Virus record (IMG/VR): IMGVR_UViG_3300031994_000061
Coordinates: 21,868 to 85,867 of that record
Reading direction: 5' to 3' (one strand)
Origin: a virus
Lineage: Duplodnaviria; Caudoviricetes
Length of the DNA: 64,000 nt
The notes under the pieces were generated by a model that was given only the letters and a program-made list of their open reading frames with translations, searched no databases and was not told where the DNA came from. The translations under genes were made by a program, and so were the position numbers. Positions within the stretch are counted from its first letter, which is position 1. Every line of letters begins with the position of its first letter. This document shows positions 9,371 through 56,598 of this stretch, one piece after another.

Positions 9371-10519
9371 TCAGAATCCTATTTTCTTCACTTCCTGTTT
9401 GTTAATGACATTCTCCTTATCCTTATGATAGATGTCGGCAAGTGTCATACCTTTCTTTGCGTCTGAGACGAGTGTCTGTGTCTTTTCAAGTGACAGATTG
9501 TTGAATGTATATTTAAGTGACAACCTTCCCTTTCTGAGAAGTGCCTCGTCAATTTTGCTTTCCGCACAGTTGAATGAGCAGATGAACTTACAGTTTACAG
9601 TCTCACCAATAATGCCATCAGTAAGATTAAGGAGTGTACCCATAAATGGGTTTCCCTCTTCTCTCTTAGACAGAATTTTCTCACAGTCCTCAAGCACTAC
9701 GATAGAGTTACGATATTCCAGCAAGAATGAGATAAATGCTGAAGATGTGATATTCTTAAGAAGGCTTGAATCAATGTACAAGAACTTCTTGTCACTGATT
9801 TCACCCATCAAGTGTTTAATTAAGGATGTTTTACCAGTTCCAGGCTTACCATTAAACAAAATGAGTTCCTTAGTTGGTGATGTAAGAAGTTCTATTATTT
9901 CCTTGTATGGAAGGTCATCGTTATAATTTTTCTCAAGGTCTATCTTCATCTTCTTAAACTCAAGTGTCTGAGTCATAAGACCGTTGGAATATCCCTGTCT
10001 AACCCACAGATAAGAAGACATTTCCTTATTGTCCAGTTCAACTTCAACAAGGCTTTCATAGATAAATTCAGCCATCCTGCCGATATTATCCTTGTTATCG
10101 GTGTATATATTTACGTTATCAAGCCTCTTAAGCTCGCTATCACCAATGGTAGAACTGTAATTCTCCATCACAATCATACCTATTTCACTGATGAACAATG
10201 CAACATTTAGTACTGGGTATGCAACGCATCCCATTTTCTCTGCTGTGTCGATGAATGAGTAGTTTTTAGAGAATTTAGTAAACTTCTCACCTATTTTTGT
10301 ATTATCAAGTGAGCGATTAATAAATTTGAGAGCACCACCATCCTTAAGTTCCATCATTGAGAAGTGGTAAATTGGGTTGTGTTTATACACGAACGTGTAG
10401 AGCATCCTATAGTTTACCTCTGGTGCTATTCCATGAGTATATATGATGACATCTTGACAATGTTCCATCAATACCTCATGATAGCGTCCTAGCATTGATT
10501 CTGATTGTTTTATATCCAT
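9371..10519 (-). CDS. AAA+ ATPase (BCS1-like)
   Basis: Walker A GKPGTGKT, Walker B IVVLEDCE, LLNLTDG, IDEALLRKGR. Confidence 0.85.
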   Translation of the reverse strand: MDIKQSESMLGRYHEVLMEHCQDVIIYTHGIAPEVNYRMLYTFVYKHNPIYHFSMMELKDGGALKFINRSLDNTKIGEKFTKFSKNYSFIDTAEKMGCVAYPVLNVALFISEIGMIVMENYSSTIGDSELKRLDNVNIYTDNKDNIGRMAEFIYESLVEVELDNKEMSSYLWVRQGYSNGLMTQTLEFKKMKIDLEKNYNDDLPYKEIIELLTSPTKELILFNGKPGTGKTSLIKHLMGEISDKKFLYIDSSLLKNITSSAFISFLLEYRNSIVVLEDCEKILSKREEGNPFMGTLLNLTDGIIGETVNCKFICSFNCAESKIDEALLRKGRLSLKYTFNNLSLEKTQTLVSDAKKGMTLADIYHKDKENVINKQEVKKIGF

Positions 10520-10570
10520 TATTACTCTAATAATTTATTGGGGTATACAATACACCCAGTGAATTTTCGG

Positions 10571-10602
10571 CAAAGATATATAAAAATTTTGGGATAAACA
10601 AG
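10571..10602 (-). promoter_or_regulatory. Bacteroidota promoter (CTTG-N20-TATCTTTG)
   Basis: -7 box 10571-10578, -33 box 10599-10602. Confidence 0.75.
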
Positions 10603-10653
10603 TAATCTTTATTTTTAAACGAATATTTAACAATATTTATTAGTTGGAAAAAC

Positions 10654-10661
10654 TATTTATA
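10654..10661 (+). promoter_or_regulatory. putative phage late promoter TATTTATA
   Basis: motif recurs upstream of structural genes throughout the window. Confidence 0.6.
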
Positions 10662-10668
10662 GTATAAT

Positions 10669-11064
10669 ATGGGAGTAATTAAAAACATAAAAGCTTCAAT
10701 AGACGATAAGTCTTCAATGAGTGTGAACAGCATAACCATGTTGGTATCTGCCATTATGGGTGTAATCATTGGACTTGTCATATGTTTTGTGCTTGTATAT
10801 GATGTGGTTTACGATGGTAAGGTTGACACCAACCTAACAGATATGGGTATATTTCTCCTTTGTAGTGGTGGATATATTCTAGGTAGTGGCGTTCCTAAAG
10901 CTTATGTTGATAGCAAATTAAAAACACGTTCCTGGGTTGAGAATGAAAAACTACAGATTGAAGCTGAAGAAGACCTTAATGACCTTAGAGCTGAAAGAAG
11001 ACGTAAAAGGAGAGCAGCCTTAGATGATGATAAACCAGATGAAGATTACACACCAGATGAATAA
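10669..11064 (+). CDS. holin-like two-TM membrane protein
   Basis: two TM helices and a highly charged C-terminal tail; late motif upstream. Confidence 0.55.
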   Translation: MGVIKNIKASIDDKSSMSVNSITMLVSAIMGVIIGLVICFVLVYDVVYDGKVDTNLTDMGIFLLCSGGYILGSGVPKAYVDSKLKTRSWVENEKLQIEAEEDLNDLRAERRRKRRAALDDDKPDEDYTPDE

Positions 11065-21769: not shown

Positions 21770-22121
21770 TGTTAATCATCGCTTTTAGTGATGGTGTTAT
21801 GTTCTTTATTCCAAACAATACGTTCTCGTATACGGTTGGGTCAATCTCAGTAATTTCACCAGCCAACACACTATTAACAAAGTCTAATGACGGAATTGGT
21901 AATCCTTTTGGTTCATATGAGATATTACAATGTCCACCATTAACATTGTCGAGAATACATATATAGTCAATGATAGGTGTGTAGTCTTCATAACCAATAC
22001 ACCTTTGGAAATACCCATCGTTAATTTTGTAGACATGGCCTTCCTTGTAGGTATACTTCTTAAACTCGCTCAAGCTTATATACTTATTTATGCTGCGGAT
22101 GTAAATATCATTATTCTTCAT
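21759..22121 (-). CDS. hypothetical protein
   Basis: ORF track. Confidence 0.65.
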   Translation of the reverse strand: MKNNDIYIRSINKYISLSEFKKYTYKEGHVYKINDGYFQRCIGYEDYTPIIDYICILDNVNGGHCNISYEPKGLPIPSLDFVNSVLAGEITEIDPTVYENVLFGIKNITPSLKAMINNGK

Positions 22122-25972: not shown

Positions 25973-28459
25973 TTACTTGATTTCAATCTGGTCGTTTAAG
26001 CATGACGCACTGAATACGTAGTTTATTGGATATTCATTTGTCAACATGAGGTCTGTAATCTTATCCTCAAGGCTCGTCTGGATAAGTCTGATGATTGGTC
26101 TAGCACCGAATTCCTTAGACTTAAGAGCTTCAGCATGAATGCATGTAACTACATCATCAGTATAAGTTATACTATATTCTAAGCTATTTAATCTCTTATT
26201 AAACTTATTAATTTCCAATTTAACTATATCCTTAAGATTATCATCTGATAAACTATTGAAGTATACTATTTGGTCCAATCTATTTATAAATTCTGGTGTA
26301 AATTTCTTCTTGAGTTCCTTATCAATAATAGACTTCTTATTAGCTTCTTCACTGTTTACAAATCCTACTCCATTTCCAAGCTCTGCTGCCTTTCTAGCAC
26401 CAATGTTGGATGTCATGAGTACGATGACGTTCTTGAAGTTTACAATCTGTCCAGAGCTGTCTGTAAGTCTACCTTCATCGAACAACTGGAGGAATATGTT
26501 ATATACTTCCTGGTCAGCCTTCTCAATCTCATCAAGTAGCAATACACAGTGTTGTTTGTGCTTAACCTGTTCTGTCAGTTGTCCACCATTCTCATATCCC
26601 ACATATCCAGGAGCAGCACCAGTTAGTTTCGCTACTGAGTTTTTCTCTGAATACTCAGACATATCGATTCTGATAAGTGCTTTTTCATCACCGAATATCT
26701 CTTCAGCAAGTTTCTTTGCAATGAGTGTTTTACCAGAACCAGTAGGTCCTACCATCAAAATATTGGCAAGTGTCTTGGACTTATCACCAAGTCCTACCTT
26801 ATTTCTCTTGATAACCCTACAAACACTATCAACAGCCTCATCCTGTCCAATAACGCTCTCCTTAAGAATCTTGTCGATGTTGGCTATCTTGGCTTTCTCA
26901 CTCACTGACAGTTTGCTTACAGGTATCTTAGTCATTTCAGAAACCACATCAGCAATATTGTCTTCAGTGATTTCTATTGTATCTATCTTTAGTTTCTTAA
27001 TATCCCTCTTGTAGTCTGCCATATCAGATGCTAGGACGTTTTCCTCGATTGTAAGGGAGTCTATGAGTTCAAAGTCACCGTTGTTAAGAGCATTGTACTT
27101 TTCTGCCTCTATTTCCCTCATTCTCTTTTTCGTGTTCTGTATCTCTACTGGTTCTCTCTCCAGAAGTGATGTGCTAGCACCAGCGAGGTCGATAATATCA
27201 AACGCTGAGTCTGGAAGGCATCTATCTGTAACGTACCTATCAGCAAGTTCTACAGCTTTCTTAATAGTTTTCTCATCGTATGAAACCCTGTGGAACTGCT
27301 CGTAATATCTTTTATTATTCTCAAGTATTTCTATTGATTCTTCAACAGTATTAGGCTCAATAATAATCTTCTGTAATTTTCTTGATATTGATGTATTATT
27401 CTCGATAGAGTTCCTGTAGTCCTTGAATGTTGTTGTACCTATAATCTTAAGTTTACCCTCTGACAATGCATTACTAATCATTCCAGAAATATCAGTGTCT
27501 TTATCCTTACTTCCATTTTTGAGTACATTGTGCATGTCATCAATGAAAAGGATATATTTATCAGAAGCTTGCAATTCAGTGAATAAACCATTTATTCTCT
27601 CTTCAAACATACCTCTGAAGTGTGTTCCACTTACCAATGCCATTATGTTGAGGAGTACGATTTCCTTACCTTCGAGTATGGATGGTACTTTTCCAGCTTC
27701 TATGAGACTTGCAAGTCCATATACGATTGCTGTCTTACCACAACCTCCACGACCAACCAATACGGCATTATTTTTCTTTCTCCTAGATAATGTTTTTATG
27801 ATTTCCTTGATTTCACTCTCTCTTCCAACAATATCATCAATTTCACCGTTTCTAGCCATCTTGTTGATACTGATGGTGTACTTGGATATGAAATCATCTG
27901 TTAGACTTGAAACAGGCTTTGCATTAACCTGGCTCTTGAGAGGTATTGCAGCCGATTTTGTTTTCAGACTCTTAGGAGATTTACTTTCTGTTTTATCTTT
28001 CTTCGGTACATCACACTTATTCTGTATGAACTCATACTCAAGTCTGAACTTTTCAAACACTTCTGAGTTCTTGAAACCATATTCCTTATTTAATACAGCT
28101 AACAGGACATGTTCTGTACCTATTTCTACATTCTTCAACTTATCTCTTTCTTTCTTGGCACATTCAAGAAGCCTAACAAGCTCATCACTGAATTTTATCT
28201 CTCCAACCAAACTTACTTGAGGGTTAACATGAGTTTCAATTGCAGACTCATATACTTTCTTAAGTTCCTCAAGATTGTTTGACATGAGACAATTGTCAAG
28301 AATAAGATTTGCATGACAGTTCCTTATGTCCAGTATTGACAGAATAAGATACTCTGGAGTCAGTATGTCCGTAGGGAACATGCCAGGAAGTGTGTTAGAC
28401 ATATACTCCAACACATCATTCAATTCTAAAGTGTAAGTGTTATCTTTCTTTCTACTCAT
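25973..28459 (-). CDS. clpC: ClpC/ClpB-family AAA+ chaperone
   Basis: Clp-N repeats (TPEYLILSIL, GTEHVLLAVL), GRGGCGKT, RCLPDSAFDIID, short UVR-like middle domain, GPTGSGKT, PGYVGY, LLLDEIEKA, VGF loop, FGARP. Confidence 0.92.
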   Translation of the reverse strand: MSRKKDNTYTLELNDVLEYMSNTLPGMFPTDILTPEYLILSILDIRNCHANLILDNCLMSNNLEELKKVYESAIETHVNPQVSLVGEIKFSDELVRLLECAKKERDKLKNVEIGTEHVLLAVLNKEYGFKNSEVFEKFRLEYEFIQNKCDVPKKDKTESKSPKSLKTKSAAIPLKSQVNAKPVSSLTDDFISKYTISINKMARNGEIDDIVGRESEIKEIIKTLSRRKKNNAVLVGRGGCGKTAIVYGLASLIEAGKVPSILEGKEIVLLNIMALVSGTHFRGMFEERINGLFTELQASDKYILFIDDMHNVLKNGSKDKDTDISGMISNALSEGKLKIIGTTTFKDYRNSIENNTSISRKLQKIIIEPNTVEESIEILENNKRYYEQFHRVSYDEKTIKKAVELADRYVTDRCLPDSAFDIIDLAGASTSLLEREPVEIQNTKKRMREIEAEKYNALNNGDFELIDSLTIEENVLASDMADYKRDIKKLKIDTIEITEDNIADVVSEMTKIPVSKLSVSEKAKIANIDKILKESVIGQDEAVDSVCRVIKRNKVGLGDKSKTLANILMVGPTGSGKTLIAKKLAEEIFGDEKALIRIDMSEYSEKNSVAKLTGAAPGYVGYENGGQLTEQVKHKQHCVLLLDEIEKADQEVYNIFLQLFDEGRLTDSSGQIVNFKNVIVLMTSNIGARKAAELGNGVGFVNSEEANKKSIIDKELKKKFTPEFINRLDQIVYFNSLSDDNLKDIVKLEINKFNKRLNSLEYSITYTDDVVTCIHAEALKSKEFGARPIIRLIQTSLEDKITDLMLTNEYPINYVFSASCLNDQIEIK

Positions 28460-31037: not shown

Positions 31038-32174
31038 ATGAATGATGTAGATAAACAGTACCTCCATTTATTGGAAGAAATAATAAGGTTTGGTGACGAG
31101 AGGAATACTAGAGCTGGAGAAGTATTATCATTATTCGGTAAGCAACTTAGATTTGACCTACAAGAAGGATTTCCACTTCTTACCACCAAAAAGGTGTTTA
31201 CAAAAGGTATTATACATGAGTTGTTATGGTTTTTGCAGAGACCATATAATTCTCACGGAAGTATGAATATCGAATATCTTGTTAGAAACGGAGTTCACAT
31301 CTGGGATGATGATGCCTATAGATGGTTTAAGAGCGAAATTTCGAATAAGCAAGAAGACATAAGGGATATTGTTGTATGTGTTTCGGATGATGAAAAATTC
31401 CCATATAAGAAGCCAAGTTATGAATATTGGATTGAAAGGGATTCAAAGATAAAAGACCAAGATTGGCTTAAGAACATAACAAAAGAGGAATTTTTGGAAT
31501 TGACACTCCAAAAAGTTGAAATAAAATTTGGTTGGGCTTACTCATACAGATTTGGTGATTTAGGACCAGTTTATGGAAAACAATGGAGGTCATTTGGAAA
31601 TCTAGAAATTGACCAGATACAGAATATAATAGAAACTCTTAAGACCAATCCTTTTGATAGAAGAATATTATGTATAGCTTTTAATCCAGAACAATTGGAT
31701 GAAATGGCATTACCACCTTGTCACGTAATGTTCCAGTTTTACGCAAGAAAACTGGATATACACGAGAGACTTAAATTGCTTACAGAAATTAATCCAGGGC
31801 ATACACTTACTCATGATGAACTTGATGAACTTGGTATACCAAAATATGGTTTGAGTTGTATGTGGACCCAGCGTTCGGTGGATTGTTGTGCAGGACTGCC
31901 ATTTAATATTGCATCTTATGCACTTTTGACTCATATTATTGCCAAACAGGTAAATATGATTCCAGATGAACTTATTGGAAGTCTTGGAGATTGTCATATT
32001 TACAAGAACCATATTGATGGGGCTAAAGAACAACTTAGTAGGGTTGGGTATAACAACCTTCCAACGTTGAAAATAAGAGAGGTTGGGTCTTTAGAGGACT
32101 TGACAATTGATGATATACAGATATTGAACTACGAGTGTGACCCGCCAATCAAATTCCAATTGAATGTGGGCTAG
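31038..32174 (+). CDS. thyA: thymidylate synthase (with insertions)
   Basis: FPLLTTKK, GPVYGKQWR, LPPCH, QRSVD, PFNIASY, GDCHIY. Confidence 0.95.
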   Translation: MNDVDKQYLHLLEEIIRFGDERNTRAGEVLSLFGKQLRFDLQEGFPLLTTKKVFTKGIIHELLWFLQRPYNSHGSMNIEYLVRNGVHIWDDDAYRWFKSEISNKQEDIRDIVVCVSDDEKFPYKKPSYEYWIERDSKIKDQDWLKNITKEEFLELTLQKVEIKFGWAYSYRFGDLGPVYGKQWRSFGNLEIDQIQNIIETLKTNPFDRRILCIAFNPEQLDEMALPPCHVMFQFYARKLDIHERLKLLTEINPGHTLTHDELDELGIPKYGLSCMWTQRSVDCCAGLPFNIASYALLTHIIAKQVNMIPDELIGSLGDCHIYKNHIDGAKEQLSRVGYNNLPTLKIREVGSLEDLTIDDIQILNYECDPPIKFQLNVG

Positions 32175-32784: not shown

Positions 32785-34821
32785 ATGATAATACACTTAA
32801 ACGAAGATATATTCCATAAGCTATTCATTGCAGAAGGTAAACTTACGACACAAGCAAAGAATAGAACATACCAGGTATTGAAAAATGGTAATTCTTGGGT
32901 TGCATCTGTAATAGATAATCCATGTACTGAGGATGGTATGGATGGTAGTATAACATATTTTGATTGGGTTTATAAAGAAATTACTAGCCACTGGTGTAGG
33001 CAAAACATAAAGCTTACTCCAGTTATCGCCAATATTCTTTTTAATGAACTTGGTTTTATGGGAATTAATCCACAAGCTGATAAAATAGCAATGTTTGGTA
33101 AAATTGTTCCTTTATTCGAATCAGACCCTAAACTCGGCTCTTTACCTTGGAATGAAGCTATTAAGTATACATATAATGACCTATACAATTATTTTATGCC
33201 ACAGATAGAGCAAAAAGAACAGGAAACTACTGATAAAATAAATAATGAAACGTATGGTCAAAGCGATTATGATATAATGCATTTAAAAAATTATGAATTG
33301 GCAACAAGGTTTTCTGATTATACAGGTGGATATATGGCAGAGGGTCATAAAATATGCTATACAACATCACGAAATACATGGAATAATTTTACAAATAATG
33401 GGGAATATAATGTGTATGTGTGCCTTAAGCATGGTTTTGAAAGTGTTAAACCAAAACCAGGAGAAGATGCCCCATTTGATGAATATGGTTTATCTATGAT
33501 TTTTGTTATTGTTGACACTAAAGGGAAATTAACAACATCTAATGTAAGATGGAATCATGCGTATGTTGAACAATGGAATAGAAATCATAGAAATGAGCCA
33601 GCTAGAAAGGTTGATAGTATATTGGATGAATATGAAATTTCTAAAATAATAAATCGTAATTTTAAAGAAACATTTACTGGAAAATATAATTTAGGATTAA
33701 AAGAGCTGGAAGAAAAAATAAAAACAGCAGATGATTTTTGGAGTATTAGCGCATATTTTGATTTGGATTTTAATATTGGTAAAGGATTTTATCTTGTTAA
33801 ATATGATGATAATTTTAATGTAGTTGATTTTAATAACAGAAAATTTGTATTTAAAGATTGGTATGATGAGATTACTTCAATACGTAATGGTATTGTAAAC
33901 ATTACTGATATGGGAGTTAGTATGTTGTTTGATGTGTTCGATTCAAGGGAAATTACTAGACGAGTTACTGGAATAAAATTTGTTAATGTTATGGAATCTG
34001 GTGCAGTCGTTATGTATATTAATGATGAATCTAAATTGAAATATCTTTATAATCTTGAAAATGAAATGATTATAAGAAATGAACCATACAAGTCTGTTGA
34101 AGCTATATTTAATGGTCTAGCATATGTTAAATGTACAAATGATTTCTATTCTATAATCAATATGGAAACTGGAGAGGCTTTGTGGCACGAATACTATCAG
34201 AAGCTGTACTTTGTTGGTAATGATTGGGTGATACTTCAAAACCTTGATAGGCAATACTACATCTTTAACAATAGGACAAGAACACTCTTGAATGAAAACG
34301 GATATGACGAAATATGTTATGATAAGAAAAAATTGGCAAACGAACTGTTGTTCGATAAACTAGGCTCAAGATATTCGCCTGGTAGGTATGTACTGGTAAA
34401 AATAGGTGGATTATATTATGCCCAGTTTGAGCATGGCGAATTGCGTAGTATATCAAGTCCAGATGTCTGTGGGTATGATGAACATGAAAAGTACGAGGAA
34501 ATGGCTAAAGAGCTGGATGACTTTATGCATAATGCCCCTTATCCTTTCGGTCATAAGAACTACATGGAGGGACTATATGATTTCTATGTCAACAGAAAAG
34601 AAACGGACGGACTTCTTGAGATAGCTGAAGACTACGTAAAAGTCAATGGAAAATCAATCCTGGAGAGAGATAGAATGAACTTCGATGCTTTTGAACCAGA
34701 AGAGGAGTTAGATAAACTAACATACAAATATATGGAAGCTGCTAGGATGTTAGCTATTGACTATCATTATGTGTTTGACGAAATGAGGAGTGAAGATGAA
34801 TATGAGGGCGAACAGCAATAA
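32785..34821 (+). CDS. large late protein with degenerate leader and beta-repeat-like C-terminal half
   Basis: start reassigned to MIIHLNEDIF after TATTTATA at 32760; AT-rich coding sequence. Confidence 0.75.
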   Translation: MIIHLNEDIFHKLFIAEGKLTTQAKNRTYQVLKNGNSWVASVIDNPCTEDGMDGSITYFDWVYKEITSHWCRQNIKLTPVIANILFNELGFMGINPQADKIAMFGKIVPLFESDPKLGSLPWNEAIKYTYNDLYNYFMPQIEQKEQETTDKINNETYGQSDYDIMHLKNYELATRFSDYTGGYMAEGHKICYTTSRNTWNNFTNNGEYNVYVCLKHGFESVKPKPGEDAPFDEYGLSMIFVIVDTKGKLTTSNVRWNHAYVEQWNRNHRNEPARKVDSILDEYEISKIINRNFKETFTGKYNLGLKELEEKIKTADDFWSISAYFDLDFNIGKGFYLVKYDDNFNVVDFNNRKFVFKDWYDEITSIRNGIVNITDMGVSMLFDVFDSREITRRVTGIKFVNVMESGAVVMYINDESKLKYLYNLENEMIIRNEPYKSVEAIFNGLAYVKCTNDFYSIINMETGEALWHEYYQKLYFVGNDWVILQNLDRQYYIFNNRTRTLLNENGYDEICYDKKKLANELLFDKLGSRYSPGRYVLVKIGGLYYAQFEHGELRSISSPDVCGYDEHEKYEEMAKELDDFMHNAPYPFGHKNYMEGLYDFYVNRKETDGLLEIAEDYVKVNGKSILERDRMNFDAFEPEEELDKLTYKYMEAARMLAIDYHYVFDEMRSEDEYEGEQQ

Positions 34822-34849
34822 AGGTATCATAAACTTGATACCTTTTTTT
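34821..34849 (+). terminator. intrinsic terminator
   Basis: AAGGTATCA-taaact-TGATACCTTTTTTT. Confidence 0.8.
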
Positions 34850-34896: not shown

Positions 34897-35196
34897 ATGA
34901 AAACTAATATGTTAGACTACATGTACGAGGGTTATGGATATGATATGGACAACCAGCTCCTTTATGTTGATGTTGAGAATTACGAAGAGGCTCTTACAGA
35001 GGAATCAAAGATGTCAACTGCTGGTATGGAGACCCTTACCCACCAGGGAATTGTAGGACACGAGCCACAGCTTGAGGTTGAGAAGGCTAGAAAGTATTCA
35101 GAAGTTGGACAGTTCATTTCTGAGAATGGTGCTAACTATACAGACCTTAGACAGGGTGTTTGCGCTTGCAATCCTAACGGTTCTACAAATCCATAA
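34897..35196 (+). CDS. hypothetical late protein
   Basis: TATTTATA at 34859. Confidence 0.7.
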   Translation: MKTNMLDYMYEGYGYDMDNQLLYVDVENYEEALTEESKMSTAGMETLTHQGIVGHEPQLEVEKARKYSEVGQFISENGANYTDLRQGVCACNPNGSTNP

Positions 35197-35217: not shown

Positions 35218-38200
35218 ATGGGAAAGACTATTAGATTTAACGAGAACAGTTTAATAGCATTGAAAAATGAATTAAACGAAATTATGGCTGGCAGTAACGA
35301 TATTGTCAGCCATAACGACGTTACTGTTAAGTTATATCATGGGACTGACATACTGGCTCTTGTTAACATATTAAAAACAAACAGGGTATGTGCAGGCGAG
35401 GGCAGACAGCATGGTGAAACTCATGGTATAAATTGGTTTTCGTTAGAAAATGATGGTAGCTTTAATAGAGGTGCTTGTTTCTCAATAGAAGTACCTAAAT
35501 CTGACTTGGGTAAAGAATTCCAAGTAATGAATAGTGTTCACGTAACATCAAGAAATTCATGCCTTGATATATCTGGGTATAGTCCTAAGGTGGAATATTT
35601 CTGTGGACATACTAGAGAAGGTCTTAATAACTGTTATAGAATACTCACTGAAAAGGGTGAGAGATACCCTATCGAATGGATGAGGGATGAGATTTTCTAT
35701 AACTGGTGTGAAAGGTCTGGTAACGAAGATACATATATGAGTGTTAGAGACCAGGATTTTGGGGTTATAATGGCTAACGTTCTTGGTGAGGATGCTGTTC
35801 GTAGGGAAGGCTTTATTAATGAAGCAGCACCAGAGGTTGACAAATTCTCAATTGGTGCTGAGAGCAGTGACCCTCCTGTTGGTGGAAACTATTATCACGA
35901 GGGTACTGTGGAAGAATCATACGGCAACAGGATTGCAAACATCGATATGTCTGAAGTAGGTGAAGTGAAGTGTGATGAATGGACATACGATGAAGAGGAA
36001 TACCAGGAATGGCTTGCTGACAATGAGATACCAGATACGCCAGAGAATAAGATGGCTTATATAGAAGATTTCAACGTAGAGTTTGAGATAACTTACCTTG
36101 ATAATCAGACCTACCATACTATGGGTGGAGATTGGGCTTACTATGATGACCTTGAAGAAGTATTCGGAGAGAAAATTGCAAAGAGGATTGAGGCTGATAT
36201 GCTTAAGTACGGACAGTCTAAGTTCGATACAACTGAATTGTATTCAGACTCGTCCTATGATATAAACAACCCACAGGAGCTTAACGATATTGCCATGAAA
36301 CTTCTACCTCATGGCGAGTATTTTAAGGACTGTAGAGGGTTCGTATTAAGTAATGGTGTCGTTCTGTATACTGAAGGTGAACACAACGATGTGCAGAGAA
36401 TACCTGGTATACATGATAAATTTCAGTTTGTTGAACTTGGTAATATAAGAGTGTTAGAGAGGTCAATAGATATTGGTGCAGAACCTACATGGGAACAGGA
36501 AAGGGTATTGAGACAAATAGTGTCATCTTATGAAGGTGAGAAGTTCTACGTTGACATATTCCATGATGGAGGAGAAATAAGTGCTTTCTATCCATCAGCA
36601 GATTATCGTTATGTACTTGGAGAAATAGATAGATTCTACTCTGAGGGTATAAAGCCACAGGGAGGTTTCGCATATGAGTCAAAAAAGTCTATGAAGACGA
36701 TTAATGAAATATCAAAGGCAAGTAACAAAGAGATATATTCTGAAGCATTCAAGAGTTGGTTCGGAGACTGGGAAAATGTAGATGCTGATGACTTTTGGTA
36801 CAATGAGGATGTTAGTAAAGTTGTTGACGAAAATAGGATGCCTGGAATTGTCAAACATGGAACACCAAACAAGTTTGATACATTTGACAGTAAGATGATA
36901 GGCACAAGTACTGACCCAGGATGGTTAGGAACTGGCTTTTATTTCTATGGTGATAATGATATATATGCTGGGCAGTATGCTGGAAGAAATGGTGTTGTGA
37001 TGGAGTGCTATTTAAATATAAGAAATCCATATATAGCAACGGGAGAAGACATGGATAAATTGTCTGAGGCTAATTCAAAGGAAGCATCAGATGAATTTAG
37101 GGAATATCTTGAATCAGAGGGATATGATGGAGTGTATTATAATGGAGACTTAAATGAGGAATGGGTTGCTTTCTATCCAGAACAAATTAAGAAAGTTGGT
37201 TCTTTTGTAGTTAATGAGAATCTTGAACCAGAAGTTTCCTCATCAGAGGTTGACCTGTCTTCATTCAAGAAACGTGACACCCTCCCTCCTAAGATATGGA
37301 AGGATGAGGAAACACTAAATTCTAGAGTTAGGTTAAAATTACTTGACATTGCTGATGATTTCTGGGAGTTTGTAAATCTCACCTGGGTTGAACCTAAGGG
37401 TATAATAATTACTGGCTCTATATGTAATTTCAATTGGTCTAAGTTCTCTGACATTGACCTTCATCTTATAGTAGATTTTAATGAAATTGACAGTAAGACT
37501 GAATTTGTTAGACAATATCTAGACTCGAAGAAGAATGAGTGGAACAATGAACATGAGGGGCTTAAGATAATGGGTTTCCCTGTTGAGTTGTATGTGCAGA
37601 ATATTGGAGAGAATCCAGAGGCTGGGGGAATATATGACCTTGAGGAAAATGTGTGGATTAGAAAGCCTAACCCACATAGTATAAAGAATATTGGCCTTAA
37701 TAAGTTCAATATAAAGGATAAGGCGGCTGAGATAATGACAATTATTGATGATATGTGTGATGCATTATCATCAACTAATGATGAATATGAAGTAAGTAAG
37801 ATTGGTGAGGATGCTCATTACCTATGGGATAAGGTAAAGGATTTAAGAAAGAAGAGCCTCACAAAGCGTGGAGAAAACGGTGCGGGAAATATAGTGTATA
37901 AGGTACTTAGAAGAACTGGTTACCTTGATAAACTATTTAAGTTATTCTCAGCGTCATATGATAAGTCAAACTCTATAACAGAATCTAAAGAACCACTAAA
38001 TGAGTTTCTTGATAATAACTATGGTATGCCATTGTACAAATATTTCCAATGGGCTGAGAAAGCTTCAGACAGAGATAAAGTAGAAGATTTAATTCGTCAT
38101 TGCCCATATATACTTGAGAAATTTTCTGAAGATGTGTCTGGATACTATGATGATATTGATGAACTTTGTGATGAACTTAGTAGTGATTATAATTTGGCAT

Positions 38201-39225
38201 ATGATGATGATTTTCTGAATAAACTTATAAATGCTTTAGAAAGGAATAAATTATTTAACAAATTGCTTGATAATGCACATAACTATGTTCATTATTCAGA
38301 CCTTCCATCATGGATGATAATGGATTTCATCAGATTGGTTAAAAATGAATGGTGTATACATTTCACAAGTAATGCATATAGTGTTGCACAGAAAGGTTTC
38401 ACTGGTGGGACACCAGATGTTGAAGATTTAGCATATACTAGTTTTGGTAAACAGAAGCTTTATCCTGGATATGATTTTGCCTTCCTAATTGGTGACAGAA
38501 GTGTGGATTTTAATGGTTATGGTAACGAAGCTGTAATATTTAGAGCAAGCGGTGTATTATTAAGGCATCATGGTGATGAACAAGACCAAGTTGTATTCTG
38601 GGGTCCAAGCATAAAAGAAATGATATCCATAGAGAAAGAACAATATTCTCATTATTGGAATATAATAGGGGCAAATGGAGAAGTTTTAAAAACTGGAAAA
38701 CCTAGTGAACTTGCATATTGGGCAACAGAGAATCTTCCACAATATAGAAATCAGATAGTGGCTGGAAAAAGTGGGTTTAAACCTTGGGGATTCAGCAGAC
38801 CGAAGTTTGATAATGAATTCATTAAACACCCATTTAAAAACGAATCCATTAAAAAATATTTAACACTCATCAAGGAGGAATTCGCAATGGATGGTTCATC
38901 TGAAGGTAATCCTTATGAGAAGAGGTGGAAAGCTGAAAGAGAAGCTTTGAAAAACTTTGTTGCCAACTATGGTAAACTGATGCAGTCGAAAGAAGACAAT
39001 AAGCAGGGTAGATTGTATAAGGTTTATTATGATGAAACAATGTCTAATCTTATAGGATACAATTATTGCATCTGTGTGCAGTGGGATGAATTAACAATGA
39101 AACCTAAGAGTACGGTCTATATTAGAGCACTTGATAAGTTTACTCCATTTATAAGGAGAAATTTGCAATATGATGATAGAGGCTTCGATAATCAAAGGGG
39201 TACTTATGACGATATAAGACCATAA
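35218..39225 (+). CDS. 1335-aa polyvalent protein: ART-like, ART-PolyVal, Pol-beta nucleotidyltransferase and further ART-like domains
   Basis: LYHGT; FKSWFGDW...KHGT...GTGFYF...YLNIRNP...GYDGV...VAFYPEQIK; ITGSICNFNWSKFSDIDLH...VELYVQ; CIHFT...GF..G. Confidence 0.8.
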   Translation: MGKTIRFNENSLIALKNELNEIMAGSNDIVSHNDVTVKLYHGTDILALVNILKTNRVCAGEGRQHGETHGINWFSLENDGSFNRGACFSIEVPKSDLGKEFQVMNSVHVTSRNSCLDISGYSPKVEYFCGHTREGLNNCYRILTEKGERYPIEWMRDEIFYNWCERSGNEDTYMSVRDQDFGVIMANVLGEDAVRREGFINEAAPEVDKFSIGAESSDPPVGGNYYHEGTVEESYGNRIANIDMSEVGEVKCDEWTYDEEEYQEWLADNEIPDTPENKMAYIEDFNVEFEITYLDNQTYHTMGGDWAYYDDLEEVFGEKIAKRIEADMLKYGQSKFDTTELYSDSSYDINNPQELNDIAMKLLPHGEYFKDCRGFVLSNGVVLYTEGEHNDVQRIPGIHDKFQFVELGNIRVLERSIDIGAEPTWEQERVLRQIVSSYEGEKFYVDIFHDGGEISAFYPSADYRYVLGEIDRFYSEGIKPQGGFAYESKKSMKTINEISKASNKEIYSEAFKSWFGDWENVDADDFWYNEDVSKVVDENRMPGIVKHGTPNKFDTFDSKMIGTSTDPGWLGTGFYFYGDNDIYAGQYAGRNGVVMECYLNIRNPYIATGEDMDKLSEANSKEASDEFREYLESEGYDGVYYNGDLNEEWVAFYPEQIKKVGSFVVNENLEPEVSSSEVDLSSFKKRDTLPPKIWKDEETLNSRVRLKLLDIADDFWEFVNLTWVEPKGIIITGSICNFNWSKFSDIDLHLIVDFNEIDSKTEFVRQYLDSKKNEWNNEHEGLKIMGFPVELYVQNIGENPEAGGIYDLEENVWIRKPNPHSIKNIGLNKFNIKDKAAEIMTIIDDMCDALSSTNDEYEVSKIGEDAHYLWDKVKDLRKKSLTKRGENGAGNIVYKVLRRTGYLDKLFKLFSASYDKSNSITESKEPLNEFLDNNYGMPLYKYFQWAEKASDRDKVEDLIRHCPYILEKFSEDVSGYYDDIDELCDELSSDYNLAYDDDFLNKLINALERNKLFNKLLDNAHNYVHYSDLPSWMIMDFIRLVKNEWCIHFTSNAYSVAQKGFTGGTPDVEDLAYTSFGKQKLYPGYDFAFLIGDRSVDFNGYGNEAVIFRASGVLLRHHGDEQDQVVFWGPSIKEMISIEKEQYSHYWNIIGANGEVLKTGKPSELAYWATENLPQYRNQIVAGKSGFKPWGFSRPKFDNEFIKHPFKNESIKKYLTLIKEEFAMDGSSEGNPYEKRWKAEREALKNFVANYGKLMQSKEDNKQGRLYKVYYDETMSNLIGYNYCICVQWDELTMKPKSTVYIRALDKFTPFIRRNLQYDDRGFDNQRGTYDDIRP

Positions 39226-50377: not shown

Positions 50378-50647
50378 TTAATCCCTACCATAAAGTTCTA
50401 CGCTTGCTGCCTGTGCCTTTTTGAGGCATATTATAGCCTGCATCACATTGTCTTTTACAATTTGTTCTGTTGAACTTGGTGATGGACTTGCAAATGGAAT
50501 CCATCCACTTACAGTTAATTCAGTTAAGGCATCTATAATGTGTTGAAGTTGCCTTGTACTTGACCCTTCTTTTAATACTCTCTTTACAGATTCACTTACA
50601 ATGTTACGAAGGTCATCCTGTGTTAGTTGTATTGGTTGTTTATTCAT
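50378..50647 (-). CDS. small protein with cargo leader
   Basis: MNKQPIQLTQDDLRNIVSESVKRVLKEG. Confidence 0.75.
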   Translation of the reverse strand: MNKQPIQLTQDDLRNIVSESVKRVLKEGSSTRQLQHIIDALTELTVSGWIPFASPSPSSTEQIVKDNVMQAIICLKKAQAASVELYGRD

Positions 50648-51333
50648 GAGTTCAATATATTTTTAATCTTATTTATTTTCTCATTCAATGCTGGCTTTAC
50701 ATCGTTTGATGTGTTAGCTTCTACGTATTGCTGTAGCTCTTCTGGTTCTCCTATCCATGCACCTGGTGTTGATGGGTCTGATACAACGTCCCAGCATATA
50801 AGTTCGAAGTCTTCTCCTACGATATATTGTCCTAATTTTTGCTCAACAGAGCCAACACCTCTTGAGGATACACCAATTTTAATTCCGTTTAGAAGCAGGT
50901 TTGCCATCTGGTCTCCACGTGTTGATACAATACCGTATTTTCTAAATCCGTATGATGTATTAATCATACACTTTCCGACAAGTGTTCTACCCTCCCAGTG
51001 AAGTTCTGTTATATTGATTGCGATTCTGTCTAGGTCTATTGTTGATTCTGCTGGGTGGTTAAGTTCACCTATTGCGTTACTGTTAACAATTTTCTTTTGA
51101 TAAAGTTCAACCTGTTTCTTAAGTACATTCTCTGGGTATATTCTACCGTTTGCGTTCTTAATACCGAACTTCTGGAATACAGCATCAACAATAAATGGAT
51201 GTGGTACGTGCCATTCCCCATCAATACCCTCTGTAATACTCTGAGGGTTCTTAATGTACATGTATCCATCCCTCTCTATGAGGATACCATGACCTGTCTT
51301 ACCTTCCTTTATTATTTCAAGTTCCTTTTTCAT
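50644..51333 (-). CDS. prohead core protein protease (T4 gp21-like)
   Basis: KNANGRIYP, GELNHP, IGVSSRGVGS, WDVVSDPSTPGA; start MKKELE at 51333 after minus-strand TATTTATA at 51351-51358. Confidence 0.92.
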   Translation of the reverse strand: MKKELEIIKEGKTGHGILIERDGYMYIKNPQSITEGIDGEWHVPHPFIVDAVFQKFGIKNANGRIYPENVLKKQVELYQKKIVNSNAIGELNHPAESTIDLDRIAINITELHWEGRTLVGKCMINTSYGFRKYGIVSTRGDQMANLLLNGIKIGVSSRGVGSVEQKLGQYIVGEDFELICWDVVSDPSTPGAWIGEPEELQQYVEANTSNDVKPALNEKINKIKNILNS

Positions 51334-51508
51334 TACTAGTAATTTTTTATTATAAATATTTCGCACTCTCCAAATATTTATATAATAGACATATAATCAC
51401 AGGTATGGAATATGACTGTAAATCAACATTTTTTGAGTGGTTTACAAAGTTTTTTTGTATTTGTGGTATATTTATATTTAAAATAATAACGTATTTAAAC
51501 TATTTTCT

Positions 51509-53133: not shown

Positions 53134-55170
53134 ATGAAAGAATTTTTATCTAGTGGCGTAGTTGGTAATATTGAGTACAACGCCCAGAAACAGATACGTG
53201 AGAGCATTCAGAACCGTTGGGACCAGCTCGGATTTACTGAGGGTCTTCCAGAGGGTATCAAGGAGAATGTTGCTACGTTGTATGAGAATGAGGCTAAGCA
53301 CTTGATTTATGAGGCTACAGCTTCTGACAATAGCGGTTCATTCGAGACTGTGGTATTCCCTATCATCCGTAGGGTATTCAGCAGACTTCTTGCTAATGAC
53401 ATCGTTTCAGTACAGGCTATGAACCTTCCTGTAGGTAAGTTGTTCTTCATCCTCCCTGTTACTTCAGAGAGAGAGTGGGAGCTTCCAGCAGAGATGACTG
53501 GCGACACTGAGCCTGGTGATATTGTAGACGGAACAACTGGTCGTCACCTTGGTCTTATGGGTTATGACAGAGTTAACCGTAACAAGGAAGGACGTGTTGA
53601 GCCACGTTACTATCTCCCAGACGAGACAATCAATGAGCTTCAGAATGCATGGTACATCCCAGTTCTTAGCGACGAGGATACCTATGACACATTCGACGCT
53701 GCTAAGGAAGCTGCTATCGCAGCTGGTCTTAATCCAACAGCTATTCGTAGAGTAGGACCAGAGGTTACTCAGTACTTCCAGAAGAGTCTTTACGACTTGT
53801 TCTACAATGACTTCTTGTATGACAACTCAAAGGGTAAGGTTACTATTAAGGTTGGTGAGGCTATCCCAGTATTCTTGACCCCTGGTGGTGTTCGTCCATT
53901 CGGTGCTGACAACTTGAATCAGTACTTCCAGAGTGGATTCGACGGAACTATCCGTAACGTCATCCTTGAGATTGATGGTTTCTCTTCATTCAACGCTTCT
54001 AAGTTGACTGGTCCTGACGGAAACGAAATGGACACTGAAGAGTTCCTTGCTTCATTGAAGGTTATCACACAGAAGGCTATTGCAGCTCAGAACGCTCCTG
54101 GTTCAGAGGACGTTAAGACTTCTGCTTTCAGAAAGTTTGAGTCTGTTCCATTCAGAGTAGTTACTCAGAAGTATGGTAAGGGTATCGTAGAGTACGGTGC
54201 TGCTTGCGACGCAGAGGGTAAGATGTATATCGAGCTTGACCTTGCTAAGCCAGTTATCCAGCAGGCTGGAACAATCGATGGCTACATCGGTGTTGCTGCT
54301 TCAGAGCTTGACGCTGCAATTGTTAAGAGTGGAAGCACTATTGACTACGAGGCAACTAAGGAGAATATCAAGTCTTTGTTCAAGATTGCTTGGGCACAGT
54401 ATGATTCTCTTGAGCTTGAGACTGAAATCGGTGAGGTTTCATTCAAGTTGGATTCAGTAACTGTATCAGTTGTAGAGAGAAAGCTTCGTGCTACCTGGTC
54501 TCCAGAGCTTGCACAGGACGTTTCTGCATTCCACAACATCGACGCAGAGGCTGAGTTGACAGCTATCCTTTCAGAGCAGATTGCTGCTGAGATTGACCGT
54601 GAGATTCTTCGTGACCTTCGTAAGGGTGCACCTTGGCAGGCACGTTGGGATGTCAATGGTTGGAGAAGAATGGCTGCATTCTCTACAAACTACACTCAGA
54701 AGGACTGGAATCAAGAGTTGATGACTAAGATTAACCAGATTTCTGCACAGATTCACAAGTCTACACTTCGTGGTGGTGCTAACTTCATCGTAGTATCTTC
54801 AGAGATTAGCGCATTGTTCGATAACTTGGAGTTCTTCCACGTATCAGATGCTTCAGCAGAGAGCGACCAGTACAACATGGGTATTGAGAAGATTGGTTCA
54901 CTTAGTGGACGTTACACTGTTTATCGTGACCCATATTCTCCACACTGGTCAATTATCATTGGTCACAAGGGTAAGTCACTTCTTGATACTGGTTATATCT
55001 ATGCACCATATGTACCAATGCAGTTGACTCCTACAATGTACAACCCATTCAACTTTGCACCAGTAAAGGGTATCATGACTCGTTACGCTAAGAAGATGGT
55101 TAACAACCGTTACTATGGACACGTTCGTGTTGACGGTCTTGTACACTGGTCAATCAATGAGTTCAGATAA
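53134..55170 (+). CDS. major capsid protein (T4 gp23-like) with a large insertion
   Basis: IIRRVF...SVQAMNLPVG, RKLRATWSPELAQD, DAEAELTAILSEQIAAEIDREI, YAPYVP, GIMTRYA. Confidence 0.95.
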   Translation: MKEFLSSGVVGNIEYNAQKQIRESIQNRWDQLGFTEGLPEGIKENVATLYENEAKHLIYEATASDNSGSFETVVFPIIRRVFSRLLANDIVSVQAMNLPVGKLFFILPVTSEREWELPAEMTGDTEPGDIVDGTTGRHLGLMGYDRVNRNKEGRVEPRYYLPDETINELQNAWYIPVLSDEDTYDTFDAAKEAAIAAGLNPTAIRRVGPEVTQYFQKSLYDLFYNDFLYDNSKGKVTIKVGEAIPVFLTPGGVRPFGADNLNQYFQSGFDGTIRNVILEIDGFSSFNASKLTGPDGNEMDTEEFLASLKVITQKAIAAQNAPGSEDVKTSAFRKFESVPFRVVTQKYGKGIVEYGAACDAEGKMYIELDLAKPVIQQAGTIDGYIGVAASELDAAIVKSGSTIDYEATKENIKSLFKIAWAQYDSLELETEIGEVSFKLDSVTVSVVERKLRATWSPELAQDVSAFHNIDAEAELTAILSEQIAAEIDREILRDLRKGAPWQARWDVNGWRRMAAFSTNYTQKDWNQELMTKINQISAQIHKSTLRGGANFIVVSSEISALFDNLEFFHVSDASAESDQYNMGIEKIGSLSGRYTVYRDPYSPHWSIIIGHKGKSLLDTGYIYAPYVPMQLTPTMYNPFNFAPVKGIMTRYAKKMVNNRYYGHVRVDGLVHWSINEFR

Positions 55171-55274: not shown

Positions 55275-55847
55275 ATGCCAAGTAAAAGTAAATCACAACA
55301 GAGATTCTTCGGTATGGTTGATGCCTATAAGAAAGGCGAGTTGAAGAATCCAAGTAATAAGATAAAGAAAGCAGCAAATGGAATGTCCATGAAAGATGTT
55401 AAGGACTTTGCTGAGACAAAGCATGATGGTTTACCAGAAACAGTAGAAAATACCATTAAATCTAATTTATCAGACAAAGCTATAAAGTTAACAGAAAATG
55501 AATTGCATACTCTTGTGAAAGAATCTGTAATGATAATACTAAACGAGGCTTATAATGATATGAATTTTAATAATGACGTTAACGACGATGAACTTAGTGA
55601 TGAATTAGAGGCTGTTGGCGCAATAGGAGAAGCTACACCAGAGGAAATAAAAGGTTGGGAAGAAGACCTTTGGATTAATGTTAATAAAACATTACAGAAC
55701 GCTAATTATCTCTTCAATAAGACAAGGGATGAAAAATATGCTAAGATTGCTGAAATAATTGGAAATTCATTAGAACTTTTTCCAGAAGATGCAGAGAACA
55801 TATATATGGGAATAGATTATGACCCAAATGCTGGTTATGGTGGATAA
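55275..55847 (+). CDS. DUF3008-like N-terminal domain plus internal cargo leader
   Basis: MPSKSKSQQRFFG...DFAETKHDGLPE; IKLTENELHTLVKESVMIILNE. Confidence 0.65.
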   Translation: MPSKSKSQQRFFGMVDAYKKGELKNPSNKIKKAANGMSMKDVKDFAETKHDGLPETVENTIKSNLSDKAIKLTENELHTLVKESVMIILNEAYNDMNFNNDVNDDELSDELEAVGAIGEATPEEIKGWEEDLWINVNKTLQNANYLFNKTRDEKYAKIAEIIGNSLELFPEDAENIYMGIDYDPNAGYGG

Positions 55848-56598
55848 AATTGATAACATAATAAGAGAAAGTATAAATTCAGTTCTTGAAGGTTTGGATT
55901 TGGACCCAGTATACGGTACAGTTAGTATGAATGCGGACCATCAGAATTATGTGGACACAAATGATGCTTGGAGTCCACAGCCTTATTATTCTACAATTAA
56001 TGGTCATAGAGTCATATCATTGTTTAGGAATAAGTGGGAGCATAACCCACTCATATGGGCATTGAAAAATAAAAAATGGAAATTTAAAAACCCACGTTAT
56101 GATATAATGTTTCTTCTTAGGAGGTTAGTAGCAGTCACTAAAGAATTGCATGAAAATTTTGATGTTATCATCACAACACCATCATCTAGTAATCTTAATA
56201 ATGAATTGCTAAGTAGAGTTGAGAAACTGATACCACATTCTAAGTCATATAAAAATTTCTTTGTAAAGTATAGTGCAAAAGAAGTATATGATAATTTACC
56301 GAATGCATATAAAAAAGAACTTAATGTATATTTTCAAAAAATGCAAGAGGTTAATAATGGGATATTCTCATACAAATACATTCCACCAAATTTTAGGAAT
56401 AAAATTGGTGAAACCATGCATACAAACGGAGAATTAAAACTATCCAAAGAAATCAACGGAAAACAAATATTAATACTTGACGATACTGTAACTACTGGAA
56501 AAACGTTATCTGATTCGGCAAAGGCTCTTATGGCTACATTTGCTCCAGCAAGCATTACATTCTTTACGATAATGATACCACAAGATATTGATTCTTGA
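55837..56598 (+). CDS. type I phosphoribosyltransferase-fold protein
   Basis: PRPP-binding loop ILILDDTVTTGKTL; DVIITTPSSS; leader-like start IDNIIRESINSVLE. Confidence 0.75.
   Translation: MVDKIDNIIRESINSVLEGLDLDPVYGTVSMNADHQNYVDTNDAWSPQPYYSTINGHRVISLFRNKWEHNPLIWALKNKKWKFKNPRYDIMFLLRRLVAVTKELHENFDVIITTPSSSNLNNELLSRVEKLIPHSKSYKNFFVKYSAKEVYDNLPNAYKKELNVYFQKMQEVNNGIFSYKYIPPNFRNKIGETMHTNGELKLSKEINGKQILILDDTVTTGKTLSDSAKALMATFAPASITFFTIMIPQDIDS

Follow-up and report, generated by a model that had tools for sequence, protein, structure and literature searches.

The stretch of DNA analyzed here (the window) spans 64,000 nucleotides, positions 21,868 to 85,867 of the IMG/VR virus record IMGVR_UViG_3300031994_000061 (Duplodnaviria; Caudoviricetes). 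On its + strand, at 35218–39225, lies an open reading frame (ORF) of 1335 codons, which an initial annotation, made by a model from the letters alone, had described as a polyvalent late protein of 1335 amino acids (aa) with six junction motifs. Both the open frame and all six motifs are indeed present at the positions it gave. As the data below demonstrate, the encoded protein strings together modules that fold independently and are mobile in evolution.

The gene stands within a + strand late-gene block, with thymidylate synthase upstream at 31038. Downstream of it follow, in order, an acidic 585-aa protein, ORF404, the large terminase TerL (43398), the portal (46208), and then a prohead protease and the major capsid protein (MCP); TerL, portal, protease and MCP all fall within 16 kb of the gene. 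The arrangement is syntenic: in >60 viral contigs (IMG/VR loci), the acidic protein, ORF404, TerL and portal come directly after the gene. No near-identical DNA was found in known phages. The source assembly is one 85.9-kb contig; since the relatives occupy contigs of 300–428 kb, this contig is a fragment of the genome of a giant, T4-like phage of gut/rumen type. A terminator-like hairpin with a 10-bp stem and a T-run (34820–34845) directly follows a 709-aa ORF, and after it come a small conserved ORF (34897–35196) and the 1335-aa gene, which suggests a transcription unit opening with these two. Because the hairpin precedes both and no terminator-like hairpin occurs between the gene and the next one, the 1335-aa gene is probably co-transcribed with the head block.

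Shuffled modules around an invariant core

A search of 5.8 billion proteins returned 365 relatives of near length, of which the best 120 were taken for the module counts given below, and a further 706 shorter ones. Borders were placed by projecting the BLAST segments of ~240 relatives onto the 1335-aa query. The resulting modules are listed in Table 1 together with the two head genes considered later.

Table 1. Modules of the 1335-aa protein, and the head protease and capsid genes, in window coordinates
Feature	Coordinates	Strand	Remarks
Leader	35218–35280	+	aa 1–21; motifs FNE aa 7–9 and LNE aa 19–21; candidate capsid-targeting propeptide
Module B, YHGT domain	35281–35823	+	aa 22–202; ends INE aa 200–202
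Conserved peptide	35824–35916	+	aa 203–233; flanked by INE 200–202 and VEE 231–233
Module C	35917–36708	+	aa 234–497; ends INE 495–497
Module D, ART-PolyVal (predicted)	36709–37218	+	aa 498–667; ends VNE 665–667
Module E, Pol-beta-fold nucleotidyltransferase (predicted) and C-terminal helical bundle	37219–37983	+	aa 668–922; ends ITE 920–922
E/F joint, tandem motifs ITE↓SKEP-LNE↓F	37984–38004	+	predicted disordered
Module F, helical 930–1034 and beta-rich 1035–1183	38005–38766	+	aa 930–1183
Disordered linker	38767–38877	+	aa 1184–1220; ends IKE 1218–1220
Module G, small helix and beta-barrel	38878–39225	+	aa 1221–1335
Prohead protease, T4 gp21 family (Peptidase_S77)	50644–51366	-	PF03420, E = 2.5e-25
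Major capsid protein, T4 gp23 family	53134–55170	+	PF07068, E = 7e-72

The nucleotidyltransferase (NTase), module E (665–923 in the map of relatives), occurs in 120/120 relatives, and module G (1209–1335) is seen in 120/120 of the long relatives and in most of the shorter ones. Module F (920–1200) is present in 89/120 and module C (~200–497) in ~90/120, with the core of the latter (374–497) often duplicated. Modules B (~37–200) and D (~500–660) are found in ~22/120 and ~20/120, respectively, the leader (residues 1–36) opens most relatives, and some relatives carry inserted modules that do not occur in the 1335-aa protein. The minimal natural forms consist of the leader and E (~300 aa) or of the leader, E and G (~430–450 aa). 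Module G is absent from the ~300-aa leader and NTase forms and from bare NTases of 244–254 aa. The invariant core of the family is the NTase, nearly always with module G. In phage collections, protein matches span the NTase module only, and come from Lak megaphages, cyanophages and Maribacter phages.

Since the relatives show sharp borders, varied architectures and insertions, the module shuffling is real. The initial annotation had suspected such shuffling from a fourth domain that appeared AT-rich by eye. The shuffling is borne out by architecture across the relatives; the premise is not, as the NTase has a G+C content of 0.35–0.37, similar to that of the whole ORF, and the sole dip (0.29–0.30, at 37950–38400) falls within the helical portion of the module that follows. 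The regions it had marked as YHGT, GFVLSNG..GNIRV, CIHFT and C-terminal domains all emerge as conserved modules with clear borders in the relatives. Its description of a multi-module, polyvalent-type protein in a phage head-gene block likewise agrees with the module map and the genomic context.

Two shorter observations belong here. A homologue of module F (34% identity) is encoded as a separate gene (L039:16964–17491), ~6 kb downstream of a 301-aa leader and NTase gene, so module F also occurs outside the polyprotein. In addition, the peptide at aa 203–233, which has a conserved consensus of ~25–30 aa (A-A-P-E-V-D-x-F/Y-x-I-G..N-P-P-V-G-G-N-x-x-H), is found in nearly all relatives. In the minimal forms it lies between the leader and the NTase, and it may be the actual core-binding or targeting element.

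Predicted folds of the modules

The initial annotation had proposed up to three ADP-ribosyltransferase (ART)-like domains, which the data place at three different strengths. Module D matches the Pfam family ART-PolyVal (PF18760) over aa 537–660 (nt 36826–37197) with E = 4.5e-17; the score of 63.5 bits compares with a cut-off of 31.2, and the match covers profile positions 1–133 of 140. The active site of ART-PolyVal consists of H in strand 1, Y in strand 2 and D in strand 5 (PMC5512222). In module D, the residues that do not vary among 9 sequences are H547 (in HGT), G573-F574-x-F576 and D625, which are candidates for these positions. Judged by its profile match, module D is a bona fide ART-PolyVal domain. 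A Pfam scan of the 1335-aa protein showed no match to the Alt family.

For module B, the YHGT domain, the signals stay below threshold. The module displays the pattern L-Y-H-G-T ... G-E-T-x-G-x-N-W-F-S ... F-S-I. It is found in 37 representative clusters, and in many of these it forms a protein by itself, of ~200 aa and with a leader of its own. Its relatives give sub-threshold Pfam signals to PARP (5/17, best E = 1.6e-4), Tox-ART-HYD1 (2) and Tpt1 (1). The module B profile finds only two matches in the PDB, both to Tpt1 at LYHGT and at chance level (E ~2), and a protein-language-model look-up provides a lead to Arr and DarT/PARP clusters at 0.91. When modules B and D are compared with hhalign, the alignment is limited to the HGT motif, with a probability of 12%. 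Taken together, the pattern and these signals indicate that module B is probably an ART-superfamily domain.

The third candidate, the CIHFT region, lies in module F, and it was approached through predicted structures, which were made of E-F-G (668 residues) and of F-G alone. A wide structural search with the 668-residue model was dominated by helical-bundle matches to aa 824–925 and was uninformative on F and G; therefore, these two were folded separately. The beta-rich sub-domain of module F (1035–1183) is predicted to adopt an ART-like fold, with a modest Z (~6) and no sequence signal for ART. Its invariant residues H1048, Y1085, S1111, D1120 and Q1124 are candidates for a catalytic triad of the R-S-E or H-Y-E/D type. 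We also considered modules B and F as paralogues of the ART-PolyVal module and rejected this, as the profile–profile tests were negative save for a match of 7–15 columns at the HGT motif; the profile of module F resembles neither that of D nor that of B.

Modules C and G belong to no Pfam family, and their profiles give chance-level matches only in the PDB (AIDA, E 1.3; a designed repeat protein, E 0.003, over a 16-residue repeat). The invariant residues of module C are H389, G-N-I-R (408–411), P-T (423–424) and Q427. The model of module G resembles small SH3/Tudor/KOW-type barrels at generic Z (4.2–5.8), and a BFVD search with the F+G model returned nothing interpretable. By sequence, the whole 1335-aa protein has no match in the PDB.

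The assignment of module E as a Pol-beta NTase, also made by the initial annotation, is upheld by structure prediction, with a weak sequence signal. Pfam NTP_transf_2 (PF01909) scores 14.2 bits against a threshold of 21 (E = 0.058), below the gathering score, and the best match among the relatives has E = 1.7e-4. The NTase profile finds only E ~0.1 matches in the PDB (DrrA, 2rff), which fall at the catalytic motif, and the Pfam scan contains no RlaP-type NTase. The predicted structure and Foldseek confirm the NTase alpha/beta core fold; the top Foldseek match is a CD-NTase at 13% identity, and its VIA Z is equal to that of unrelated NTase subfamilies. The signature hG[GS]...[DE]h[DE]h...h[DE]h is present as G733-S734, D745-I-D747 and V-E790-L, invariant in 110 sequences. 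On the basis of the model and this signature, module E is a Pol-beta-fold nucleotidyltransferase with an intact active-site signature. The structure predictions that the initial annotation had suggested as a check, here covering E-F-G and F-G, thus confirm the NTase fold and return the ART-like fold of module F at a modest score.

Leader, joints and head protease

The junction motifs are FINE (aa 199–202), TINE (494–497), VVNE (664–667), SITE (919–922), PLNE (926–929) and LIKE (1217–1220); further motifs occur in the leader (F-N-E and L-N-E) and as V-E-E after the conserved peptide. They follow a simple rule, with I, L or V (or M) at P3, any residue at P2 and Glu at P1, and the residue at P1' differs between joints. 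In the aligned relatives a hydrophobic-x-Glu motif is found in 87% at J1 (aa 200–202), in 96% at J3 (aa 665–667, with the P1 Glu in 226/226), in 91% and 89% at J4a (aa 920–922) and J4b (aa 927–929), and in 99% at J5 (aa 1218–1220; 207/210 relatives). At J2 the value is 48% by ungapped projection, and the listing reveals the motif a few residues off in nearly all relatives. The 12 in-domain motifs are kept at 1–90%, with a median of ~37%.

The junction motif persists regardless of which module adjoins it, and the nearby linker residues vary. Doubled motifs are frequent, as in I-T-E↓S-K-E-x-L-N-E↓F and, at J5, L-K-E↓N-x-I-N-E↓E. Both modeled joints are predicted to be disordered, with pLDDT (predicted local distance difference test) values <50 at aa 919–927 and 1184–1230 and of 29–42 in the linker 1184–1220. 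Stand-alone NTase proteins end ≤1 residue from the predicted cut (N-S-I-x-stop), and bare NTases begin a few residues after the predicted cut. These observations establish that the module borders correspond to natural protein termini.

A similar pair of motifs marks the N terminus. The leader of the 1335-aa protein reads M-G-K-T-I-R-F-N-E↓N-S-L-I-A-L-K-N-E-L-N-E, and a double-motif N terminus of this kind is present in 9/107 ORFs of the contig, compared with 3% of internal windows (p = 0.005). Among these ORFs are the protease and the ORF preceding the capsid gene. The pattern also opens most relatives, as well as the stand-alone B-domain and NTase proteins. Otherwise unrelated leader-type ORFs lie at 12475, 24018, 24844(-), 45290, 49957, 50644(-) and 51509; one such leader is M-K-Q-I-I-R-L-T-E-S-D-L-H-x-[LI]-V-K-E. 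Together, by virtue of this shared sequence pattern, the leader-type ORFs are candidates for the head-packaged protein set of the phage.

A position matrix built from 101 leaders detects 49 internal copies in 245 relatives and 0 in shuffles, and 34/49 of the internal copies lie directly before the NTase. The linkers of many relatives are recognizable internal leader copies, and the polyprotein probably arose by fusion of separate leader-bearing cargo genes.

The initial annotation had invoked a prohead protease, and the window does encode one together with a T4-type capsid protein. The gp21-family protease is 34% identical to T4 gp21 (E = 3e-26), with the catalytic motifs GELNHP and GVSSRG conserved. 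The MCP matches T4 gp23 in BLASTP at 5e-28, its N-terminal segment aligns with the gp23 propeptide at 7e-7, and it contains LIYE↓A at aa 58–61. In T4, gp21 cleaves after L/I-X-E, and among its substrates is Alt, a head-packaged ART that loses a piece at either end (PMC9026906); the T4 internal proteins share a capsid-targeting sequence (PMC9026906, PMC3012670). Giant phages pack much cleaved internal protein, with propeptides that contain redundant sites (PMC9026906). The features of a T4-type protease substrate are found here as well: gp21- and gp23-family genes, an N-terminal leader with L/I-x-E, and motifs in exposed segments.

Several further genes of the window were noted. The MCP has 678 aa compared with 521 aa in T4 gp23, with a large insertion between the propeptide-like N terminus and the gp23 core, and its Pfam match begins at aa 404. 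Directly after the capsid gene come an ORF with a DUF3008 N terminus (55275–55847) and an ORF (55819–56598) with a weak phosphoribosyltransferase match (PF00156, 2.5e-6). At 25973–28459 (-) an 828-aa ClpB/Hsp104-type double AAA+ ATPase is encoded (AAA_2, 8.5e-59; ClpB_D2-small).

Proposed processing and comparison with known systems

These results, by analogy with Alt and the internal proteins of T4, lead us to propose that the protein is late, head-associated polyvalent cargo: a capsid-targeted precursor that would be cut by the gp21-type protease into separate enzymes, which would be ejected with the DNA. We assign this reading a probability of about 0.6. In this scheme the protease would remove the leader and cut the joints, yielding ~6 products of about 181, 295, 170, 255, 291 and 115 residues. 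The products would stay with the DNA and enter the host at infection, where the ART modules, drawing on NAD+, and the NTase, drawing on NTPs, would modify host proteins or nucleic acids in the service of take-over or counter-defence. Targeting, cutting, ejection and all substrates are what we infer, alongside the observed anatomy, folds, motif conservation and context.

Several observations weigh against this proposal. The 1335-aa protein contains 24 [ILV]xE motifs where 23.7 are expected, which is chance level for a motif with only two fixed residues. We therefore rejected motif enrichment as an argument, and the case rests on the position of the motifs and their conservation at the borders. 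Two in-domain motifs, at aa 594–596 (90%) and 808–810 (80%), are as conserved as the junctions, so conservation alone is no proof of a cut site. P1' is invariant at J3 (Asn) and J5 (Glu), which could reflect domain N-caps. The internal joints of the 1335-aa protein are not significantly leader-like, with a best score of -1.0 against a 95th-percentile null maximum of 2.9; the best scores, at aa 497 and 667, are non-significant. The specificity of the protease is assumed from its 34% identity to gp21. Finally, the distant relatives (34–39% identity) are the bare NTases, with no leader or extra modules. In the IMG/VR loci L050–L073 the match lies at ~10001–10738 of each locus, and most of the bare NTases precede the acidic protein, ORF404, TerL and portal, as the 1335-aa gene does. 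One subgroup instead adjoins the MCP, an ORF518 homologue and the protease, and a few contigs are without recognizable neighbors. The presence of leaderless NTases at the equivalent locus means that the core enzyme is not dependent on a leader everywhere.

If the protein is packaged but not cut at its joints, it would be injected whole, with only the leader, and perhaps a C-terminal tail, trimmed. The junction motifs would then be leftovers of the leaders of fused genes, or redundant sites that are partly used. T4 Alt sheds short terminal propeptides only (PMC9026906), polyvalent proteins of the N4 virion RNA polymerase type are packaged unprocessed (PMC5512222), and the leader copies that form the linkers of relatives could persist without use. 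We nevertheless consider this explanation unlikely, as unused remnants should decay, yet P3 and P1 are kept at the 87–99% given above amid variable linker residues; moreover, the doubled motifs at the joints match the redundancy of phiKZ propeptides, and both modeled joints are disordered and accessible.

It is also conceivable, but in our judgment quite improbable, that the protein is a late cytoplasmic multi-enzyme that modifies, for example, phage DNA or RNA or host factors in assembly, with its [ILV]xE linkers kept for folding, spacing or recombination. The leaderless NTases at the equivalent locus in distant phages, the homologues of cyanophages and Maribacter phages outside head blocks, and the chance-level motif count would all fit such an enzyme. 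The conserved position in the head and packaging block would not, nor would a leader that also opens other late ORFs, the protease and a putative scaffold ORF among them. Furthermore, the motif fits the cleavage rule of the protease family that the phage itself encodes, and ART-PolyVal is a domain characteristic of proteins predicted to be injected. The large quantities of cleaved internal protein packed by giant phages, together with the lack of assigned catalytic residues in modules B and F and of an ART sequence signal in F, might suggest that the protein is mainly a structural or scaffolding part of the giant head (inner body or core) and that its enzyme folds are inactive relics. We give this idea very little credence: the G-S, D-x-D and third acidic residue of the NTase are invariant in 110 sequences, the ART-PolyVal match is far above its Pfam threshold, and modules that are freely shuffled and lost look more like accessory effectors than like parts with a fixed structural role.

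The processed-cargo proposal can be extended into a broader and more tentative one, which we would sooner bet against than for. The leader and the [I/L/V]-x-Glu motif may form a cassette that serves as a portable tag for capsid loading and release throughout a large, T4-like clade of giant gut/rumen phages. Single cargo genes with this tag would have been fused repeatedly into polyproteins that are cut again by the head protease. The phages would thereby possess a combinatorial arsenal of injected enzymes, shuffled rapidly around a universal NTase, with its near-universal barrel partner, that is aimed at a host or defence component. If the cuts do occur, the protein would be a phage analogue of a viral polyprotein that delivers host-modifying enzymes rather than serving replication; the head protease would also act to release the enzymes, and modules would be swapped by way of the leader/linker cassette. 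Such a system would supply a simple sequence rule to predict the injected proteome of uncultured giant gut/rumen phages and a natural tag by which foreign proteins could be loaded into their capsids, and the uncharacterized, near-universal injected NTase would be a new player in take-over or counter-defence.

Among known systems, T4 Alt and the internal proteins IPI–IPIII are host-modifying or anti-defence proteins that enter the gp21/gp22/gp23 prohead, are trimmed after L/I-x-E and are ejected with the DNA (PMC9026906, PMC3012670). The protein described here has the same kind of short N-terminal leader ending in hydrophobic-x-Glu, in a phage with gp21- and gp23-family genes. The T4 proteins are single-function and lose terminal propeptides only, whereas the present one, known from its sequence, has up to six modules with motifs between them; Alt is an ART, and the ART here is of the PolyVal (H-Y-D) type. 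The phages phiKZ, 201phi2-1 and SPN3US likewise have large capsids with many internal proteins that a gp21-related protease cleaves on the C-terminal side of Glu; the redundant sites in their propeptides are what the doubled joint motifs resemble. The proteases of these phages use S/A/G-x-E, in contrast to the T4-type I/L/V-x-E motif seen here, and what they cut is for the most part inner-body or propeptide-bearing protein without enzyme function rather than a chain of enzyme modules. Two-lobed Pol-beta NTases (CD-NTases such as CdnE, the aminoglycoside NTases AAD(9)/ANT(4'), OAS1, TENT5 and MNT antitoxins) have the fold predicted for module E, an NTase core with a helical C-terminal lobe, and the same G-S ... 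D-x-D ... E catalytic signature.

The closest likeness is to the polyvalent proteins, predicted capsid cargo in which enzyme domains of the conflict type, several of them and unrelated to each other, share one polypeptide (Iyer, Burroughs, Anand, de Souza, Aravind 2017, PMC5512222). These too combine ART-PolyVal and a Pol-beta NTase in one chain, are encoded beside terminase and portal genes with predicted delivery together with the DNA, and are highly variable in architecture. The 1335-aa protein contains at least two unrelated effector-type domains (ART-PolyVal, the NTase fold and the ART-like fold, with further modules) in a virion-gene context. Polyvalent proteins frequently carry their own peptidase, a zincin-like MPTase. 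In contrast, a Pfam scan to E 1 revealed no credible peptidase family in the 1335-aa protein, the sole peptidase-like match being a sub-threshold M64_N hit of 29 residues (E = 0.14, 12.2 bits against a cut-off of 27), and head-protease motifs are found at the joints instead. Unlike polyvalent proteins, it has a shared N-terminal leader of a predicted cleavable type, and its NTase is a two-lobed, invariant core where Iyer et al. describe a minimal NTox45-like NTase of firmicute elements. Neither that study (PMC5512222) nor a 2021 jumbo-phage survey describes head-protease processing, and a 2026 paper on T4-like 'Jug' gut phages of 360–402 kb does not mention ARTs or NTases. In every feature that can be computed from its sequence, the protein fits the polyvalent family, and it is set apart by doing without a peptidase of its own and by the predicted head-protease motifs at its joints.

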